A DNA stretch of 64,000 nucleotides. Origin: Gammaproteobacteria bacterium. GTDB taxonomy: Bacteria > Pseudomonadota > Gammaproteobacteria > Eutrophobiales > Eutrophobiaceae. A program made the position numbers and the translations under genes. The notes under the pieces were generated by a model, which was given only the letters and a program-made list of their open reading frames with translations, made no database searches and had not been told where the DNA came from. The stretch is from positions 2,182,061 through 2,246,060 of the forward strand of contig OZ000552.1 in NCBI GenBank assembly GCA_963923955.1, given 5' to 3'. Positions 6,581 through 62,882 of the stretch are shown one piece after another. Numbering within the stretch: the stretch's first letter is position 1; each line of letters begins with the position of its first letter.

Positions 6581-8682
<2,102 letters not shown>

Positions 8683-8700
8683 TCATATAACAACACATGC

Positions 8701-9344
8701 CTACCCGGTCTCTGATTTGCTCAGGAGCGCATAGGTATCCGAGCGCCGGTCACGCAGAAACTGCCAGCCATTGCGGACCTCACGCACCAGCGCCAGAGCA
8801 ATCTCATGCACCAGCGATTCATCCTCATCCCGACTTGCCAGCGCCTCGATATCGCCGCGTGGATTGACCACGTAACTCTGGCCATAAAACTCACCAATGT
8901 TCCACGGCGCTTCCCTGCCAACCAGATTGATTGCGCCGATATAAACGCCATTGGCAGCGGCGGCGGGCTGTTCCAGCTTCCATAAGTATTCCGATAGACC
9001 GGCAACCGTGGCGGATGGGTTGACGATATATTCGGCGCCTTGCAGCGCAAGCGCGCACCAGCCCTCCGGGAAATGACGGTCATAACAGATATAAACGCCG
9101 AGCTTGCAATAGGCGATGTCAAATACCGGCCAGTTGGATGTGTCCGGCGTGAAAAAAACTTCTCCCAAAAGCCGGCAACCTGGGGGATATGTGTCTTGCG
9201 ATACTTGCCTAAGAAAGCGCCATCAGCATCGATCACCGCGGCCGTGTTGTAATGCACCCCGGCAGCGCCTCTTCATAGAGCGGCGCCACGATAACCATTT
9301 GGTATTTTTTGGCATATTCCTGCATGAGTTTGGTTGTGTAACCA
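8701..9344 (-). pseudogene. nitrilase-superfamily N-carbamoyl amidohydrolase (beta-ureidopropionase/N-carbamoylputrescine amidase-like), frameshifted and 5'-truncated
   Basis: Three overlapping frames carry consecutive parts. These are AESIPDGYTTKLMQEYAKKYQMVIVAPLYEE, then HYNTAAVIDADGAFLGKYRKTHIP, then FTPDTSNWPVFDIAYCKLGVYICYDRHFPEGW...GAEYIVNPSA. The N-terminal roughly 60 codons are replaced by the IS fragment. Confidence 0.7.
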
Positions 9345-9629
9345 TCAGGAATGGACTCTGCCGCCTTGATGGAGGACTCCAAAGACCGGCACTTTCCCAC
9401 CCGCTCCCCGTCCGCGTTGGCCTTTACGTCTGCCGCCAAAATAACTTTCATCGACTTCAAACTCTCCCCAAAGCAGAGAGGTCTTTGGGGATTCAAGGGC
9501 GATCAATTCTCGCAAACGATGATAGTAGTAGGCCGCTGTTGTCTTATTCACATTGACCCATGCTGCCGCAGTGCGGACTTTTGTTGCAGACACAAAATGC
9601 TCTATTAAACGATTTTTTTGCCCACACAT
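9345..9629 (-). mobile_element. IS1595-family (ISXO2-like) transposase N-terminal fragment
   Basis: RLIEHFVSATKVRTAAAWVNVNKTTAAYYYHRLRELIA HTH plus EVDESYFGGRRKGQRGRGAGGKVPVFGVLHQGGRV. This is the characteristic start of the ISXO2-like DDE domain. Truncated after about 94 codons. Confidence 0.7.
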
Positions 9630-9739
9630 AAACGACTTTTACGCATGGTCATAAGATAATACAATGTGGATGATACAATGCGATCATCTAAGACAGATCC
9701 ATCAGTTTTAGCAAAATAGAGGCTTATCGTTCATCCAAT

Positions 9740-10696
9740 ATGAAGACTCTCATCAAGGGTACGCCGCGCATCTCCGTCATCATTCCGGTGTATAACCGCT
9801 ACGCCAGCCTGGTGCGGGCGCTGGAGTCGGTGCAAGCACAGACCTATCCCGTTTATGAGGTTCTGATCGTGGATGACGGCTCGGATGAAGAGATTGCCGG
9901 GCAAATCGCTGCGCTGGAGGAAGGTGTGGTACGGGTGCTGCGTCTGGCGCAAAATAGCGGGGCGGCAGCGGCGCGCAACGTTGGCATGGCGGCGGCCCTT
10001 GGCGAGTACATCGCCCTGCTGGATTCAGATGACCTCTGGCGGCCGGAGAAAACCGCCCGCCAGCTGGCCTTCATGCAACAGACCGGCAGCCGCTTCAGCG
10101 CCACGTCCTACTGGCGCCATTTTCACTATGGCATAAAGGCGGGTTGGTATGAGTTGTATGAGCCTGCTGCTACCGTTGCAATGCGGCACATCGTCAGCGG
10201 CTGCGCCTTTGCCACCACGACCTGCTTGTTCGAGCGCAGCCTGCTGGCAGCACTGGAGCCGCAGGATGAGGCATTGCGACGCGCACAAGATTGGGAGTGG
10301 TTCCTGCGCGTTGTGGCGCTCACCCCAGTGCGGACGCTGCGTGAGCCGCTTGCGGTCATCGGGATGCATCGCAGACCTGTTGCAGAGAAAATGTTTCGTG
10401 CGGCTACGTATATGCGGCGCAAGCATCTGCGCGCCCTGGCCGGCAAGAATCCCCTGCTGGCCCTGCGTTTTTTGTCCGCGCTCGGCGTCATGGCGGGCGG
10501 GGCGGCGTACCGAGAGGGCAGGTGGCTGCGGGTTTTGTGGTACACGACTCTGGCGATGCTATGCTGGCCGGGCAATATACCGGCGGTGGCCTGGCAGCGT
10601 TCAAAAAACTGGCTCTTCCCTTTCCGTACTCGTCTGCACAAGAACGAGCCGCCATGGGCGCGGGGGGGGGGGGGGGGGGGGGGGGGGGGGAAGTAA
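9740..10696 (+). CDS. family 2 glycosyltransferase (GT-A), ending in a poly-Gly tail encoded by the poly-G tract
   Basis: RISVIIPVYNRYASLVRALESVQAQTYPVYEVLIVDDGSDEE and LDSDD (DxD) motifs. The C-terminus RGGGGGGGGGK* is read from the G29 tract. Confidence 0.8.
   Translation: MKTLIKGTPRISVIIPVYNRYASLVRALESVQAQTYPVYEVLIVDDGSDEEIAGQIAALEEGVVRVLRLAQNSGAAAARNVGMAAALGEYIALLDSDDLWRPEKTARQLAFMQQTGSRFSATSYWRHFHYGIKAGWYELYEPAATVAMRHIVSGCAFATTTCLFERSLLAALEPQDEALRRAQDWEWFLRVVALTPVRTLREPLAVIGMHRRPVAEKMFRAATYMRRKHLRALAGKNPLLALRFLSALGVMAGGAAYREGRWLRVLWYTTLAMLCWPGNIPAVAWQRSKNWLFPFRTRLHKNEPPWARGGGGGGGGGK
10662..10690. repeat. 29-nt homopolymeric poly-G tract (candidate slipped-strand phase-variation switch)
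   Basis: Uninterrupted g x29 at the 3' end of the GT2 gene. It lies 82 nt upstream of the next GT2 ATG at 10772. Confidence 0.95.
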
Positions 10697-10771
10697 TGCC
10701 AGCCCACCTTGCCTATCGGTTCTCGCCTTCAGCATCATTGCATCCATTTTTATCTTTTGACGGAATTTGCC

Positions 10772-11587
10772 ATGCGCCGGGTTGAAGTGGCTATTGCGAC
10801 CTATAATCAGAGGGTATTCAGCGCCGTCTCACTCGCCCAATCCTTCAATGAAAAGACGCCAGTGCTGATAGCGCACCAGCTCGATGACTACGCACTCTCT
10901 GCGCGCGAGACGGCATTTGTCCGCAGGCAGCTGGATGCGGCTGCGAATATTCGGTATAGACCTTTGCATACGCGGGGATTGGCCAAAAGCCGGAATTTTG
11001 CGATAGGCGCAGCAGAAGGTGAATATATCTGGTTTCTGGACGATGACGTTACCATAGAGCCGGACTGTGTGGAAATCATTGAGAAGGCGATAAAGGATTT
11101 GCGGAACCCGGATGTCATCACCTTTCAGACAGGCAAACCAGAGGGCGGAAAACGTAAAAATTACAAGTCATTGCTGCATGAACATAACTGGCGCAGCGTT
11201 CTACGCATATCGTCCGTTGAAGTGGTCGTGAAAAGTTCGTTTATCCTCAGCGAGCACATTGTATTTGACGAGCGCTTTGGTCTTAACGGGCAGTATGGTT
11301 CAGGCGAGGAGAATATTTTTATCTGTGATTGTATGAATGCCGGCGCAAGGGCGTATTATTACCCGGCTGAAATCTGCAAGCATGCGGCCGTTAGCAGCGG
11401 GATGGGCATAGCGAATGAGACGGTCGCCTTCTCTAAAGGTGCGGTTTTCAAGCGAATGTACGGCAACTATGGCCTGTTCTTTGTGCTTTTATTTTGCAGA
11501 AGAAAATATGAGGAAATATCCGCTACCATGAGCATTTTCAAGTATTTGCTCTGCATGATGAAGGGGTGGAAAACACTCAAGCGCTGA
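10772..11587 (+). CDS. family 2 glycosyltransferase-like protein
   Basis: MRRVEVAIATYNQ start. GEYIWFLDDDV (DxD) motif and C-terminal hydrophobic segment. The upstream part of the ORF-track call (10709-10771) is probably not translated. Confidence 0.7.
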   Translation: MRRVEVAIATYNQRVFSAVSLAQSFNEKTPVLIAHQLDDYALSARETAFVRRQLDAAANIRYRPLHTRGLAKSRNFAIGAAEGEYIWFLDDDVTIEPDCVEIIEKAIKDLRNPDVITFQTGKPEGGKRKNYKSLLHEHNWRSVLRISSVEVVVKSSFILSEHIVFDERFGLNGQYGSGEENIFICDCMNAGARAYYYPAEICKHAAVSSGMGIANETVAFSKGAVFKRMYGNYGLFFVLLFCRRKYEEISATMSIFKYLLCMMKGWKTLKR

Positions 11588-11719
11588 TAGGAAAACAGCG
11601 ATTCGGGGGGTGTTGTTATATGAAAAAGGCCGACGGGTGCCGCCCTGAAAATATCAGCTTATTCATAATCGGCAGCATTTTTACTTTGTAGCCAACGTTT
11701 ATATAAGTCCGAGGTTTCT

Positions 11720-12163
11720 TCAATTACCGGTCGGGCGATCAGGCGAGCGAATTTTCATGAACAAATAATAGCTCCCGCCGGTGATGAGTGCGCCGGTGAA
11801 CCAGGCATAGTGATATAAACTGATAAAGAGGCCGGGCACATTATCCAGCGCTTCAATCGCGGCCAGAAAGCCGGGGATGTTAGGCGCAACGCCAAGGCCG
11901 AAGGCAATCATCGCCTTTACATTCCATCCCTTGCTGTAGCGATAGGCGCCCGCAACAAACTCCGATGGCCTTGCCAGCATATCGCCAAAGCCATCAGCCT
12001 GCACATAGGCCCAGGCCAGCAGCGCAAATGCGGCAAGCAACAAAAAGGGAGCGTCCAAGGTTTCCAGCCAGCGAATGGATTCGGTGCCGCGGATGATAAA
12101 GATCAACTGCAAGGCCCAAAAGGCGAGAAAACATAAGGCTTGCGCGAGATCAATGCCGATCAA
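11720..12163 (-). pseudogene. possible C-terminal fragment of an NCS1-type nucleobase/hydantoin permease
   Basis: 147-aa ORF with 3-4 predicted TM helices and a ...FTGALITGGSYYLF C-terminus, weakly reminiscent of NCS1 permeases. No upstream continuation in any frame. Confidence 0.3.
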
Positions 12164-12485
12164 CGGCAGCAGGGAATGTTCCCCTTTTGGTAAGCCAAGC
12201 TAAGGCACGTATTATTTATGACCCGGCTGGTCGTAGTAACAGGAAGGTCTATTGCAGCTGTGCAAATCCAATGCTGCGAAGCCATCACCGCAGAGATGGC
12301 ACACGGACAAACGGGCATAGACGATTTTGAAGCCATGAAGCTGAAACACGCCTACAGGCGCAGCACGCGGTAGATTTTCTCAGCGCCCCCATTGCTGAGC
12401 TTTATTCACTGTTTCCGCCTTTGGCAAGATGCCGGTTAAGGCAGTCAGCCTGACAATGCTTAGCCGCCCGGTCTCCAGTCTTGAT

Positions 12486-20811: not shown

Positions 20812-21678
20812 TCATTCATTCGTCTTTTGATAGAGCAGCATCGTGATCTGCTCGGATACCAGGCCGATCAAAAAGATCAGGATGCTGGAGAGAAACAGGA
20901 TGGCGCTCATGTTGGTAAAGCGCCCCCACAGCAGGAAGGTGTAGGCATAATAAGACACCCCGACGAGGAAGGTCAGGCCGCTGAAGGGGACGAATATTTT
21001 CAACGGCGAGAACAGTGTGCCGATCTTGAATAAGATAAGCAAAAAACGAATGCCGTCTTTGAGCGGCCTGATGTGGCTTTTCCCCAGCCGCTTATGCGCC
21101 GTGATGGGACAAAAGCCGACGGTATAGCCGGAGCGATAAAAGGCCATGGTGCTGGTCGTGGGGCAGGAAAAGCCGTTGGGATAGAGATGCAGAAATTGCA
21201 TGAATTTCTCGCGCGCCGCTATCCTGAAACCCGAGGTCAGGTCCGGCACGGGCCGATTGACCATGTAACTGGCCAACTTGTTATAGGCCGTGTTGGCGAG
21301 CAGGCGCCCGCACCCAGCATGGGAGCCCTTATCGCGCGCGCCGATGACCAGATCAAAGCCCTTTTCGTACTCATTGAGCAGCGCATTGATATACTCCACC
21401 GCGTGCTGGCCATCGGCATCCATGAAGAGGATCACCTCCCGACTTGCATGACGACAGCCGGCCTTGATCGCCGCACCATTGCCCTTGCTGTACAGGTGCC
21501 GGATGCAATCTACATTGTACTGTCGGCACAGTTCTGCGCTGTCGTCACGGGAGCCGTCATCCACCACGATGATCTCCGCCGCAGAAAATTTCTCGCTCAG
21601 CGCCGGCAAGAGAATTTTTAAGCCCCGGGCCTCGTCTCTTGCCGGGATTACAATGCTTAATCTTTTGTGCTCTATCAT
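20812..21678 (-). CDS. GT2 polyprenyl-phosphate glycosyltransferase (ArnC/GtrB/DPM1-like)
   Basis: LSIVIPARDEARGL...IIVVDDGSRDDS...LFMDADGQH motifs plus two C-terminal TM helices. Overlaps the upstream GT-C gene by 4 nt. Confidence 0.8.
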   Translation of the reverse strand: MIEHKRLSIVIPARDEARGLKILLPALSEKFSAAEIIVVDDGSRDDSAELCRQYNVDCIRHLYSKGNGAAIKAGCRHASREVILFMDADGQHAVEYINALLNEYEKGFDLVIGARDKGSHAGCGRLLANTAYNKLASYMVNRPVPDLTSGFRIAAREKFMQFLHLYPNGFSCPTTSTMAFYRSGYTVGFCPITAHKRLGKSHIRPLKDGIRFLLILFKIGTLFSPLKIFVPFSGLTFLVGVSYYAYTFLLWGRFTNMSAILFLSSILIFLIGLVSEQITMLLYQKTNE

Positions 21679-23597
21679 TCCCGCTCCGCAGCCTTTATCC
21701 GCGCCAGATTACTCTCCATCCTCGCCAGCACCTTCCCATTGGCAAGCGCCACCTTTGGGTTCTTCGCAAAATATTCTTTTGTCCGCGCAAGAACCTGCGC
21801 GGCGAGCGCTGTATTCCCCGCGTGTGTTGCAATGTTATATTTCAGTGTGTATTTCTGTACAGATTCCTGCAAGGCCAGCGCGCGCGCAACATTGGCCAGC
21901 GCACAGGCCGTATCTTCCATATACATGCACAGCAGGGCGGCCAATTCGTGCAGCATGTGCTCAAACTGCCGATACTCGGCCTTGCCCGTCAGGGTCAAGG
22001 TGATGCCAATCACGCCGGAGGGATCGACATAGGGACAATGCCCCTCCTGCATCGCCGATACCAGGTCGTTCAAAAAACTGATCGTAACAAAGGGATACCA
22101 GTCCTTCTTTTCACTCTGTCGTGATATAAGCGCCCACCTCTCTTCCGGGATGGCCTCCTGCAAGATACAGCCCTGCACGTACAGGTATTTGATGTATGGC
22201 AAGAGCGTGTTGTCATCAATGCCCTCCAGATGGGCTTGAGCCTTGATCACCGCATCCCGGTAGCCAAGCCGGGCATAGGTATGAATGGCCTTATTCCAGG
22301 CAGCATAGGATTTCGGCTGCTGCATGGCCAGCTCAATGGACTGGCGGTCAAAGTCATCCCAGGTTCTCAATTCAAGATAACTGACCAGAAAAAGCGCGCC
22401 GACATACAGCAGCAGCGGCAGCCTAATCAGCATCTTATCGTATCTCGCCAAGAGGGTGCTGACTACCCACGCGATGAAAAACAGCGGCCCCAGCGCGGGC
22501 AGATAATTTCGATGCTCGTAATATAGCCTGAGATCAAGAAAGCTGGACTCCAGAACATGGCCGCCGAAGAACCACAACACGGCAAAGCTGAGAAAGCCAA
22601 AGCGCTGTCTTTTTAAGATGGCAAAGACAATTAAGCCCACCACGGCCATACAGGCAAACACGGTGCTGAGCGGTTGCAACAAGCCCCTTGCCACTGGAAC
22701 GTCATCGTGATAGCGGGAAAAATCGCCGGGGCTTGGCAGGAATATATTTTGTAGATAATCAAGCAATATCAGGCCCTGGGTCAGCAGGCGCTCAATGGGC
22801 GTGAAATGCCGCTTGGCATAGCCCAGCATCAGCCCGTCAATGGTCAAGATGATCCAGCCGCAGAGCAACAACAGCGGCCCGGCCAGAAAGACTAAAGCCC
22901 AGGTTTTCCAGCGCCGGTCCCGGCACGTATCTTTCAGCAAGGTAGACTCAATCACTAAAATAAACAGCGGCAGCAAGATGCCGTTTTCCTTGCTCAACAC
23001 AGCCAATCCCATAAAGACAAGGACGGAGAAGCTCATGCCGAGGAGGCCGGGCCTTGGCTTGCCTTGAACATAAAGGCCGCGGAAATATAAATAGCAGAGT
23101 ATGCCGAGCAGGGAAAAAAGGGTGGATAATTGTGTCATGCGCTGCACGACATAAAGCACGGTGGTGAACTGGATCGGGTGCAGCACCCACAAGGCCGAAC
23201 ACAGCAGGGCTGTTAGATAACTCCTGCGCCTGTCATAGCCGGTGAGCCGCAGCAGCGTGTTGACCAGGATCAAGACCAGTAGGCCGTTGATGAGATGAGT
23301 GAGCAGGTTGACCAGCTTAAAGGCATAGGCATCGTGCGGCCAGCTTTCATGCTGCAAGGCGAGGCTGAACAAGGAAATCGGCCGGCCTAGCGGGCCGGCG
23401 ATGCCTTCCAGCACAAAAGGCCAGACGCCGGTGTCTGCTACCCGTGCCAGCCGGTAGAGATTATAGTAATCATCGCCCCAGAAACCGGAGTGCAGCGGCA
23501 ATGCAAACAGCAGCAAGACAAGGACGCAAAGACCCAGGAAGATGCCGCCGGTGATAAGATAGGAAGAGCTAAAAGGTAATAGAGGCCGTACTGTCAC
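21675..23597 (-). CDS. GT-C fold membrane glycosyltransferase (PMT/ArnT/TMTC-like) with a C-terminal TPR-like helical domain
   Basis: 640 aa. About 11 TM helices with a GDDYY acidic motif in the first loop, then a soluble helical-repeat C-terminal domain. Confidence 0.7.
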   Translation of the reverse strand: MTVRPLLPFSSSYLITGGIFLGLCVLVLLLFALPLHSGFWGDDYYNLYRLARVADTGVWPFVLEGIAGPLGRPISLFSLALQHESWPHDAYAFKLVNLLTHLINGLLVLILVNTLLRLTGYDRRRSYLTALLCSALWVLHPIQFTTVLYVVQRMTQLSTLFSLLGILCYLYFRGLYVQGKPRPGLLGMSFSVLVFMGLAVLSKENGILLPLFILVIESTLLKDTCRDRRWKTWALVFLAGPLLLLCGWIILTIDGLMLGYAKRHFTPIERLLTQGLILLDYLQNIFLPSPGDFSRYHDDVPVARGLLQPLSTVFACMAVVGLIVFAILKRQRFGFLSFAVLWFFGGHVLESSFLDLRLYYEHRNYLPALGPLFFIAWVVSTLLARYDKMLIRLPLLLYVGALFLVSYLELRTWDDFDRQSIELAMQQPKSYAAWNKAIHTYARLGYRDAVIKAQAHLEGIDDNTLLPYIKYLYVQGCILQEAIPEERWALISRQSEKKDWYPFVTISFLNDLVSAMQEGHCPYVDPSGVIGITLTLTGKAEYRQFEHMLHELAALLCMYMEDTACALANVARALALQESVQKYTLKYNIATHAGNTALAAQVLARTKEYFAKNPKVALANGKVLARMESNLARIKAAERE

Positions 23598-32189: not shown

Positions 32190-35177
32190 ATGAATCTGCA
32201 AAAGAAAATCGTTGTCTATTATTTTATCTTTGCCTTATCTGGTTTCAGCGGGCTGATATATGAGTCGGTCTGGTCGCACTACCTGAAACTCTTCCTCGGC
32301 CATGCGGCCTATGCACAGGCCCTGGTGCTGGTTATTTTTATGGGCGGGATGGCATTAGGTGCCTGGCTGACCAGCAAGATTATTCACCAGTTCAAAAACC
32401 TGCTTATGGCTTATGCCGTCATCGAAGGCATTATTGGCTTGATGGGGCTGGGCTTTCACAATGTCTATGTGCATATAGCGGAGCTCTCTTACAACAAGAT
32501 CTTTCCCGCGCTCGATTCTCCCGCCCTGGTGCACACATATAAATGGCTGATCGCGGCCATCCTGATCCTGCCGCAATCCTTGTTGTTGGGGACCACCTTT
32601 CCGCTCATGAGCAATGGGGTAATCCGCTTGCTGCCCGATGCCCCCGGGCGGCGTATCGCCATGCTGTATTTCTGCAATAGCATCGGCGCCGCCATAGGCA
32701 TTCTCGTGGCCGGCTTTTACTTAATCAGCAAGACCGGGCTGCCCGGGACGATCTTAGCCGCCGGGCTGTTAAACATACTCATTGCGCTTGCCGTGTATTT
32801 TATTGCCCGACCTGTCGGCACTGCCGGGACAGCGCCGCTGCCAGCCACCGCCAAGGCCACGGCTTTTCTAGCAAAGCGCCTGGCCCTTGTATTCCTCTTT
32901 GCTGCCTTCATCACCGGCGCCGCCTCTTTTATCTATGAAATCGCATGGATAAGGATGCTGTCCATGGTGTTGGGTTCCAGCACCCACGCCTTCGAGTTGA
33001 TGTTGTCCGCCTTTATCACCGGCCTGGCGCTCGGCGGCCTGTATATCCGCAAACATATCGAGCGCTATGAAAACCCGCTGCGGGTGGCCGCCATCGTACA
33101 GATCGCCATGGGCCTGCTGGCGCTGGCAACGGTGCCGCTCTATAACTACTCCTTTGAGGTAATGGCCTTTTTCATGTCGGCCCTGGGGCGTAATGAAGAT
33201 GCCTATATCCTGTTTAATCTGTCCAGCCATTTGATCGCCTTGGCGGTTATGCTGCCGGCCACCTTCTGCGCCGGCATGACCCTGCCCTTATTTACCTTCA
33301 TATTGCTTAAAAAAGATTGTGGCGAGCAGAGCATCGGCTATGTCTATGCCGCCAACACCATCGGCGCCATCATCGGCGTGTTGTTCACATTATTTATCGG
33401 CATGCCGGTATTGGGTTTGAAAGGCGCCATCATGAGCGGCGCCTTTTTGGATATCGCATTGGGGCTTGCCCTGTATCTTATCTATGCACGCGCTATGGGG
33501 CATAGCTATCTGCGCCCGGTAGCGGCGGCATCCATCCTCATCTTCGTTGGCATCGGCGGCTTTGTGCAGATCGACCCGGCAAAGATGGCCTCCGGCGTCT
33601 ATCGCACCGGCGATGCCGGAGCTATCGAGAGAGATGCAGAAATCCTGGCGCACATGGACGGACAGACCGCTTCGATTAGTGTGATTAAGTGGGACGCTGG
33701 CGCAGGCATTACTATCAGCACCAACGGCAAACCGGACGCCGCGATAGCAGTGGATGAAGGAGAGGAGCCGACCGAGGATGAGTCCACCATGATCTTATCA
33801 AGCGCCTTGCCTTTGGCCATCCATCATAAGCCGGAGCGCATCGCCAACATCGGCTTTGGTTCCGGCATGTCAACGCACACCCTGTTGTTATCTGAACAGG
33901 TCAAGCAGGTTGATTCGATTGAAATAGAGACAAAGATGATCGAGGGTGCGAAGTTTTTTCAGGCCAAAAATCACAAGGCATATTCCGACCCGCGCAGCAG
34001 AATTTATATTGAAGATGCCAAGACCTTTTTAAGCACCCACAACAAACACTACGACATCATTATCTCCGAGCCGTCCAACCCCTGGGTAAGCGGGATTGCC
34101 AGCCTGTTCACGATCGAATTTTATAATGAAGTCAAACAGCACATTAACGCAGGCGGACTCTTTGTGCAGTGGTTGCATGCTTATGAAAGCAATATTCATC
34201 TCATTGCATCCATTCTAAAGGCCATCTCCGCCAGCTTTGCCGATTACCAGATCTATGCAGCCAACGATGTGGATCTGCTGATCATTGCCAGCCCTGATGG
34301 CCGGATAAACCTGCCGGGCGGTGAATTATTCAACAACGCGGCGCTTGCAGCTCAACTTAAGACTATCGGTGTGAATAATATTCATGATCTTGCTATCCGG
34401 TTTTTGGGCAACAAGTCCCTTCTCGATCCCCATCTGCATAGCAACGCTGTCAGTGTTAATTCCGACTTTTTTCCTGTCGTCGATCAGCAGGCCGCGCGGG
34501 CCAGGTTTATTTCGAGTATCTCGCGCGAACTGCAAGCAGTGAGTTATTTCCCGGTTCCAATTCTGCAAATACTGATCCCGGAACTTGGTGATTATAAACT
34601 TGACGATGCAACACAGTCAGATGTGCTATGGGCCAGCAATTTTGCCGATGATGCCCAGCGGATTTATTATTTCCTGACAAACAAGCAAGGCGCGGATGCC
34701 ACTGTGTCTGATTTGCTCAGCATCAATCTGCTGAAACAATTCGCTGCGCAATGTAGTGCCGATATAAACGAGAGGATGTGGGTGGACGCCATGCTCGAAC
34801 TCCACATCAAAACAGTCGCATTTTTGCATCCCGAGCGCTTGCAAGAAATCAGCGCGGCAATAGCGCCCGAATGTGAAGCGCCGCTATCGGATACACAGTC
34901 AAAGCTGCTCGGTCTATACTCGGCCTTTGGTGAAAACAATCCAGCTGCGCTGGTGAAATACAGTCGTTATCTGCTGGATAAAAATATTGCCCAAGACCGT
35001 ACACAGCGTGAATTTTTGTTCTCTACACTGCTGCTTGGATTGATAGCTACGCATGACTACCAGGACGCCATGTTGTTGTGGGATGATTTAACTGGCAAAC
35101 TCTACCAGTACGCCGAAGACATCCCCTTCCCGCTACAAGTCATGCGCAGCTTTGCCCTTGAGAAGATGAATGAATGA
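32190..35177 (+). CDS. fused MFS-like membrane domain/spermidine synthase-family protein with long C-terminal extension
   Basis: MNLQKKIVVYYFIFALSGFSGLIYESVWSHYL... N-terminal multi-TM region. Central aminopropyltransferase-like core (IANIGFGSGMS...YDIIISEPSNPW). About 300 aa of unassigned C-terminus. ORF-track start 31974 is an extension over sucD. Confidence 0.8.
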   Translation: MNLQKKIVVYYFIFALSGFSGLIYESVWSHYLKLFLGHAAYAQALVLVIFMGGMALGAWLTSKIIHQFKNLLMAYAVIEGIIGLMGLGFHNVYVHIAELSYNKIFPALDSPALVHTYKWLIAAILILPQSLLLGTTFPLMSNGVIRLLPDAPGRRIAMLYFCNSIGAAIGILVAGFYLISKTGLPGTILAAGLLNILIALAVYFIARPVGTAGTAPLPATAKATAFLAKRLALVFLFAAFITGAASFIYEIAWIRMLSMVLGSSTHAFELMLSAFITGLALGGLYIRKHIERYENPLRVAAIVQIAMGLLALATVPLYNYSFEVMAFFMSALGRNEDAYILFNLSSHLIALAVMLPATFCAGMTLPLFTFILLKKDCGEQSIGYVYAANTIGAIIGVLFTLFIGMPVLGLKGAIMSGAFLDIALGLALYLIYARAMGHSYLRPVAAASILIFVGIGGFVQIDPAKMASGVYRTGDAGAIERDAEILAHMDGQTASISVIKWDAGAGITISTNGKPDAAIAVDEGEEPTEDESTMILSSALPLAIHHKPERIANIGFGSGMSTHTLLLSEQVKQVDSIEIETKMIEGAKFFQAKNHKAYSDPRSRIYIEDAKTFLSTHNKHYDIIISEPSNPWVSGIASLFTIEFYNEVKQHINAGGLFVQWLHAYESNIHLIASILKAISASFADYQIYAANDVDLLIIASPDGRINLPGGELFNNAALAAQLKTIGVNNIHDLAIRFLGNKSLLDPHLHSNAVSVNSDFFPVVDQQAARARFISSISRELQAVSYFPVPILQILIPELGDYKLDDATQSDVLWASNFADDAQRIYYFLTNKQGADATVSDLLSINLLKQFAAQCSADINERMWVDAMLELHIKTVAFLHPERLQEISAAIAPECEAPLSDTQSKLLGLYSAFGENNPAALVKYSRYLLDKNIAQDRTQREFLFSTLLLGLIATHDYQDAMLLWDDLTGKLYQYAEDIPFPLQVMRSFALEKMNE

Positions 35178-62218: not shown

Positions 62219-62809
62219 TCAACAGCCCTTGTAGTTCCTCTCCACGCACTCGCGGGCCAGTTGCTGGGCGGTAGTAATATCGGCGGGCCTCATCTCCTCG
62301 GCGAGCAAGTCCCTGTTTTCTGCAGCCAGCTCGTGGCCCTGTGCTGCGGCCAGGTTATACCACAGATGGGCGCGGATATAGTCTTGCGGTACGCCTCGCC
62401 CCTTGTCATACATAAACCCCAGATTGTTTTGGGCACCGGCATCGCCCTGCTCGGCCGCCAGTTGCCACCACTTCGCAGCCATCCGATAATTCCGCGCCAC
62501 GCCCTGCCCCTCGTCATACATCACTCCCAGATTGTGCTGGGCATGGTCATTGCCCTGCTCGGCCGCTCGCCGATACCACTTCACGGCTTCCTTGTCATCC
62601 TGCACCACGCCTAGCCCCTGGTCATACATCACCCCCAGACTGTTTTGGGCAGCGGCAAGGCCCTGCTCGGCCAGGGCTTGCCATTCACGCAGGGCGGTGG
62701 CGTAGTCGCCGCGCTCATAGGCTGCCATGCCCTTTTCAAAATCCGCCGCCGGGGCGGCAAGGGCAGTGAGGCAAAGCAGAATGGGAAGAAGGTTTCTCGT
62801 TTGTTTCAT
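62219..62809 (-). CDS. Sel1-repeat (SLR/TPR-like) secreted protein
   Basis: Signal peptide, then four to five Sel1 repeats (AQNxLGxMYxxGxGV...A..WY..AA.QG). Confidence 0.7.
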   Translation of the reverse strand: MKQTRNLLPILLCLTALAAPAADFEKGMAAYERGDYATALREWQALAEQGLAAAQNSLGVMYDQGLGVVQDDKEAVKWYRRAAEQGNDHAQHNLGVMYDEGQGVARNYRMAAKWWQLAAEQGDAGAQNNLGFMYDKGRGVPQDYIRAHLWYNLAAAQGHELAAENRDLLAEEMRPADITTAQQLARECVERNYKGC

Positions 62810-62882
62810 AGGTAAGCGGCTCCGTTGTTTCGCGCCATCATACAGCAAGGCCCTTTAGTGGGCAAAGGCCCGATGCGCGCGC

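Follow-up and report, generated by a model that had tools for sequence, protein, structure and literature searches.

A run of 29 consecutive guanines lies at the junction of two glycosyltransferase genes in a 64-kb stretch of gammaproteobacterial DNA (64,000 nt, hereafter the window), and raises the question of whether it is a contingency switch for surface glycans, a by-product of genome rearrangement that the cell tolerates, or a product of sequencing and assembly. The reading that we prefer, at a probability of roughly 45%, is that the tract is genuine and extremely slippage-prone, that it sits at a permissive site on the seam between a resident-type and a foreign glycosyltransferase gene within a decayed 4.2-kb insertion, and that it is more probably tolerated than selected as a switch.

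The G29 tract, its flanking genes and the insertion around them

The run is present and uninterrupted on the + strand at 10662–10690 of the window, as an earlier note on this DNA had reported. The other structural points of that note also held up: it had placed the tract between two GT2-family genes, 82 nt upstream of the second and inside an IS-scarred accessory island, had read from it a Gly9 tail on the product of the first gene, and had called a 29-mer unusually long. The tract supplies nine glycine codons (Gly309–Gly317) of the first gene, here called gtA, which are followed by AAG (Lys) and by the TAA at 10694–10696 that closes a 318-aa ORF, while the distance from its last base to the ATG of the second gene, gtB, at 10772 is indeed 82 nt, so that the run also falls within the putative gtA–gtB transcript leader. 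As for length, no other homopolymer in the whole 64-kb window exceeds 7 nt, the maximum across 1.40 Mb of loci retrieved from other genomes, most of them gammaproteobacterial, is 10 nt, and we estimate from a G frequency of 0.278 that about 5e-12 such runs would arise by chance per 64 kb. Contingency loci carry a hypermutable simple repeat of at least about 7–8 units, and G29 is such a repeat; it is the only one that we found in the window (which covers ~2.4% of the genome), with no further hypermutable repeat or notable microsatellite beside it. A second copy of the tract flanks was found neither in the window nor in the fetched loci, and Rfam and tRNA scans returned no match at or near the run.

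The upstream gene, gtA (9740–10696, + strand), encodes an intact GT2-family glycosyltransferase of 318 aa (PF00535, E 2e-32). Its composition is host-like, with a GC of 0.62 and a GC3 of 0.73 (proS has a GC3 of 0.72), and the DDGS, DSDD and D184/W187 positions that are invariant among its relatives are retained in the alignment. The closest relative is a 52%-identical paralog encoded in the same genome, outside the window, and all remaining relatives reach at most ~48% identity over part of the length. Homology to the paralog stops at 10627, the paralog itself terminating two residues beyond, and from there gtA continues into a 3' tail, TRLHKNEPPWAR-G9-K-stop (10628–10696, + strand), that is predicted to be disordered and is unmatched in the paralog and in most homologs. 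Among 19 aligned family members, most of the 18 homologs stop short of this tail, and the segment LHKNEPPWAR-G9-K has no counterpart. Structurally, the AlphaFold model of gtA built on that alignment (mean pLDDT 88.8) is confident to about residue 292; block means are ~52–58 from residue 291 and 40 for residues 311–318, and residues 310–318 (eight of the nine glycines plus Lys318) all score below 50. Because the paralog and most homologs end earlier and model confidence is low there, the G29 tract is predicted to encode a disordered appendix that is outside the enzyme proper. Two ORFs in alternative frames and an antisense ORF with a 5' poly-Pro stretch (10126–10707, − strand) had no family match and were taken as spurious.

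The downstream gene, gtB (10772–11587, + strand), encodes a second intact GT2-family glycosyltransferase, of 271 aa (PF00535, E 7.5e-12), that has lost none of the 16 columns invariant in its small family. The N-termini of its homologs line up with its own, which identifies 10772 as the true start. Compositionally, gtB is low in GC and foreign-like (GC 0.49, GC3 0.58, the lowest among 13 genes sampled), its relatives share at most 36% identity with it, and a comparison of gene neighbourhoods found no gtA-like neighbour beside its distant homologs.

Both genes lie in a 4.2-kb (4.19 kb) insertion between proS and acyP (8294–12485), delimited by comparison with five relatives (L001, L002, L004, L005 and L007) in which acyP follows proS within about 15–190 nt, with brkB, wrbA and hda after it. 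The insertion contains an N-terminal fragment of a dihydropyrimidinase, a CN-hydrolase that is 5'-truncated and frameshifted twice, a truncated 94-aa fragment of an IS1595-family transposase (9345–9629, − strand, by family match), then gtA, G29 and gtB, and finally an internally deleted fragment of an NCS1 permease; gtA and gtB are its only intact genes. This is the IS-scarred island of the earlier note, missing in the relatives and filled with decayed genes. Judged by the remains of the dihydropyrimidinase, CN-hydrolase and NCS1 permease, it carries a dead pyrimidine-catabolism cluster, and the presence of pieces of that one cluster on either side of the gtA–gtB pair argues that the sequences flanking the tract are contiguous by origin and not misjoined. 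A 14-nt perfect inverted repeat, TCATATAACAACAC / GTGTTGTTATATGA, at 8683–8696 and 11610–11623, with no extension past 14 nt, encloses the CN-hydrolase fragment, the IS1595 fragment, gtA and gtB. It is unique in the window, ~0.05 such inverted pairs would be expected by chance in 5 kb, and it could trace an inversion or the ends of a mobile element.

Reality of the 29-nt run

The best-surviving alternative is an artefact of sequencing, assembly or polishing, with either no long tract at all or a real but shorter G run stretched to 29; we regard this as unlikely but by no means negligible. Poly-G is a recognised artefact class of two-colour chemistry, and the error could have entered through homopolymer miscalling or through polishing with reads that bear two-colour Illumina poly-G tails. 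In favour of such an origin, the length is without precedent in 1.46 Mb of comparison DNA or among published tracts (at most 20 in Helicobacter canadensis, modal length 9 in Campylobacter jejuni), and no collection that we searched holds an independent assembly of the organism. Both genes are recorded only from one contig of 2,634,084 bp (a 2.63-Mb genome): searches for proteins identical to gtA, gtB and the paralog gave no record, no searched collection contained a gtA or gtB relative above 53% identity, and metagenome contigs scanned for both flanks with a variable gap of 5–35 nt gave 0 matches. A BrkB-based metagenome search for the same species likewise reached at most 53% identity, and none of the collections searched yielded a further genome, a metagenome contig or a variant protein carrying the tract. 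The species-representative genome collection lacks the source genome, and no ProS in it is more than 70% identical to that of the host, the nearest being from Thiotrichaceae-like MAGs.

Several features of the locus nevertheless argue against an artefact. The flanks are coherent, comprising two GT2 genes that are intact, point the same way and end normally and, around them, the fragments of one catabolic cluster, and the remaining window consists of ordinary intact housekeeping genes, so the assembly is not generally poor. By our reasoning, dark-cycle poly-G at read 3' ends would join X-Gn to Cn-Y and not to the co-oriented Gn-Y seen here. Adaptor, anchor-primer and SMRTbell sequences are absent within 400 nt of the run, a single 8-mer match being at chance level. 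The number 29 itself is at best the mode of a length mixture, and may have been inflated by consensus calling or polishing. In the CN-hydrolase remnant, an A7/T7 run at 9152–9158 coincides with one of the two frameshifts, which may reflect genuine slippage or a miscalled homopolymer, a choice that bears on the trust to be placed in homopolymer lengths of this assembly.

Length change, transcription and the case for a switch

Functionally, the consequences of slippage can be read from gtA rebuilt in silico with G24 to G34. Residues 1–308 are unchanged at every length, and the products, of 317–349 aa, carry after the Gly run one of three kinds of tail, of 1, 22 or 31 residues: gtA ends in K at lengths 26, 29 and 32, in SNASPPCLSVLAFSIIASIFIF at lengths 25, 28, 31 and 34, and in EVMPAHLAYRFSPSASLHPFLSFDGICHAPG at lengths 24, 27, 30 and 33. 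The SNASPPCLSVLAFSIIASIFIF tail is hydrophobic, with a mean Kyte–Doolittle value of 1.6 that rises to 2.6 over its last 16 residues. Both alternative frames are open across the gtA–gtB spacer (10697–10771, + strand; 75 nt, 48% GC), and frame analysis places their stops at 10758–10760 (TGA) and 10783–10785 (both + strand), so that the gtA stop codon ends 75 nt before the gtB ATG, 11 nt before it, or 14 nt inside gtB. These are the same ends, 10785 for +1 and 10760 for −1, that the earlier note had given, and the 20–30 different residues that it expected from a frameshift proved to be 22 and 31. At 22 and 31 codons, the alternative frames are no longer than chance would give (estimated P about 0.35 and 0.23). 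With the tract confined to codons 309–317 of 318, no frameshift truncates or inactivates the protein. On this reconstruction, slippage cannot inactivate either gtA or gtB; what it does, deterministically, is swap the gtA tail and move the gtA stop.

Such an arrangement, with a homopolymer at the 3' end, full-length products in all three frames and alternative C-termini, is that of C-terminal phase variation, which was described in Helicobacter canadensis, where 3'-end tracts swap tails (Snyder et al. 2010, PMC2823697). As far as sequence can tell, G29 matches that anatomy, a G tract in the last codons whose three frames differ only at the C-terminus, with a possible coupling effect in addition; unlike the H. 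canadensis tracts, it is also the leader of a second gene. The two systems differ further in scale and in documentation. The H. canadensis tracts are G12–G14, with reads of about G10–G17 and a maximum of 20 elsewhere in the genome, against G29 here; of the eight candidates there, five fall within or close to a single gene cluster, among whose members is a sialyltransferase gene (PMC2823697). Length variation was seen in H. canadensis reads, whereas the present tract is known from one assembled sequence, and that genome holds dozens of tracts compared with one in this 64-kb window. With the better-known poly-G/C loci of Campylobacter, Neisseria, Haemophilus and Helicobacter, which switch LOS, capsule or glycosylation genes ON and OFF at the level of translation, G29 has in common a G run with glycosyltransferase genes, an acquired variable region and presumed slipped-strand mispairing. 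Those classical tracts are 5' or internal and lead to truncation, however, whereas G29 follows the whole functional body; their modal length is about 9 (PMC3401435) as opposed to 29, and the present host lies outside those pathogen lineages. The kind of locus, a 3'-end homopolymer near surface-glycan genes, is already known, and what is unusual is its length and its host.

Transcriptionally, a sigma-70-like promoter match, TTTACG-N16-TACAAT, lies upstream of gtA at 9638–9665 (+ strand), although the count of such consensus matches is not above shuffle expectation. A consensus scan for sigma-70 found no −35/−10 pair in 10600–10771, and no terminator-like site was found between gtA and gtB. Since the sole promoter-like site near the pair is upstream of gtA, co-transcription across the tract is implied, and the simplest reading would be one bicistronic gtA–gtB transcript running through the G run. 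The AT-rich region upstream of gtA (9630–9739) contains a near-repeat, GATAATACAATG / GATGATACAATG, that overlaps the promoter-like site; as the region runs right up to the IS1595 fragment, at the latter's 5' end, IS-adjacent sequence may drive gtA. Folding of the tract region as RNA and as DNA gave structures no stabler than those of shuffles (z of +1.0 and +2.0, with tools that do not model G-quadruplexes); G29 can in principle form a G-quadruplex.

In the homopolymer switches of Neisseria porA and opc and of Bordetella fim (poly-C in the latter), the repeat falls between the −35 and −10 elements of a mapped promoter or a short way upstream of them. G29 resembles these in being a G/C run upstream of the gene that would be regulated, but differs in that the sigma-70 consensus scan places it neither between nor just upstream of a −35/−10 pair, in being too long, at 29 nt, for a spacer of 16–18 nt, and in lying inside upstream coding sequence. 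The suggestion that tract length alters promoter spacing for the second GT2 gene is unsupported on the first two of these grounds. The broader interpretation of the locus as a contingency switch survives in part: an extreme tract, near GT2 genes and in an island, stands, on/off control of gtA does not, and promoter spacing finds no support in the sigma-70 scan.

A selected contingency switch could still act on gtB, by way of translational coupling, of the geometry of a promoter or UP element, or of the strength of a G-quadruplex, and would generate heritable surface-glycan variants; we consider this distinctly unlikely. The gene class and the position 82 nt upstream of a glycosyltransferase gene fit known contingency loci, a gtA stop 11 nt upstream of gtB or overlapping it by 14 nt is the geometry of translational coupling, and both glycosyltransferase genes have stayed intact amid degraded island neighbours. 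Set against this, promoter-like elements are missing around the tract in the sigma-70 consensus scan, the 64 kb hold no further simple-sequence repeats, and the pairing of a gtA-like with a gtB-like gene is not conserved. Moreover, 29 nt is far over the mutability that a switch needs, so that a phase would hardly be heritable.

Doubtful to a greater degree is the more specific proposal of a coupling device, in which tract length modulo 3 would set whether ribosomes that complete gtA are delivered to the gtB start or released 75 nt away, as well as whether gtA bears the hydrophobic tail on its poly-Gly linker, and would produce stochastic glycan variants while gtA is never off. A weak Shine–Dalgarno sequence precedes gtB, and a good one is absent before gtA too, so that the weakness of the former is not specific evidence for coupling.

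The compositional seam and the origin of the tract

Evolutionarily, the tract coincides with a change in the DNA around it. The best two-segment GC change-point by maximum likelihood falls at 10600–10730, with a log-likelihood gain of 16.4. Because this change-point lies at the tract, GC3 is 0.73 in gtA versus 0.58 in gtB, and the adjacency of the two genes is not conserved, we take G29, on composition and gene order, to be the seam between DNA of two origins, a host-like gtA and a foreign-like gtB.

Under the preferred reading of a genuine and tolerated tract, the seam would provide a permissive position, downstream of the part of gtA that is conserved and folded and ahead of the gtB start. 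Slippage would be frequent in DNA and would probably also take place in RNA during transcription, and length change would yield three gtA isoforms that differ only past the poly-Gly linker, with gtA never off. Any regulatory output would then be graded and fall on gtB. Two of the three frames would bring terminating ribosomes to the gtB start, where termination–reinitiation could raise gtB translation; by an alternative route, the G-quadruplex-capable or R-loop-prone run might hinder transcription or translation in a length-dependent manner. Since the alternative frames are of chance length, gtA itself has no clear Shine–Dalgarno sequence and the window contains no other such repeats, we incline to regard the tract as a by-product that the cell tolerates at a recombination seam, and not as a switch that has evolved. 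In C. jejuni, where the modal poly-G length is 9, a tract lengthened from G8 to G11 becomes ten times as mutable, and its changes shift towards deletion (PMC3401435). G29 is far above these equilibrium lengths, and thus, if real, it should be highly unstable and shrink, and would be either very recent or subject to different slippage biases.

A one-step origin has also to be weighed, in which template-independent addition by a terminal-transferase-like activity, an NHEJ polymerase or a reverse transcriptase filled an illegitimate joint between gtA and the incoming gtB. The tract coincides with the GC change-point, gtA extends past the usual end of its family into the run, the length far over slippage equilibrium suggests a recent, non-slippage origin, and the island is itself a mosaic of deletion joints. 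The change-point resolution of ~130 nt, however, also fits an ordinary gene boundary, the island lacks a polymerase or reverse-transcriptase gene, and we know of no bacterial mechanism that deposits ~29 identical nucleotides at a chromosomal joint; we regard this origin as very improbable.

Scarcely credible, finally, is classical ON/OFF switching of gtA, or length-dependent fusion of a split gene as at Campylobacter poly-G junctions, for although the tract lies in the gtA frame and at the junction of two same-family ORFs, residues 1–308 stay constant over G24–G34 ahead of a non-conserved, disordered tail, gtA and gtB each have a complete GT2 N-terminal motif, and fusion at any length is impossible because the shared frame is closed by the TAA at 10694–10696 and the other frames stop at 10760 and 10785, with the result that the sequence excludes both.

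If real at ~29 nt, the run would, to our knowledge, rank with the longest homopolymers on record within bacterial coding sequence, and in a host lineage not known for contingency loci. A genuine tract would offer a test of the limits on tract length, such as the deletion bias above about G10, and of whether gene-end repeats regulate a downstream gene by shifting a stop codon. If inflated by polishing, it would serve as a warning about poly-G in finished genomes; real or inflated, it does not control gtA in the on/off manner that had been proposed.

Elsewhere in the window, a third GT2-family gene (20812–21678, − strand; PF00535, E 4.6e-25) shares a 4-nt overlap with a 640-aa ORF (21675–23597, − strand) for which no Pfam match was found at E up to 1. 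A 1067-aa ORF (31974–35177, + strand) combines an MFS-like membrane region, which scores below the Pfam cutoff, with a spermidine-synthase-like domain. A tandem repeat of 108 nt (62391–62672; 2.6 copies, 76% matches) falls within a 209-aa ORF (62219–62848, − strand).
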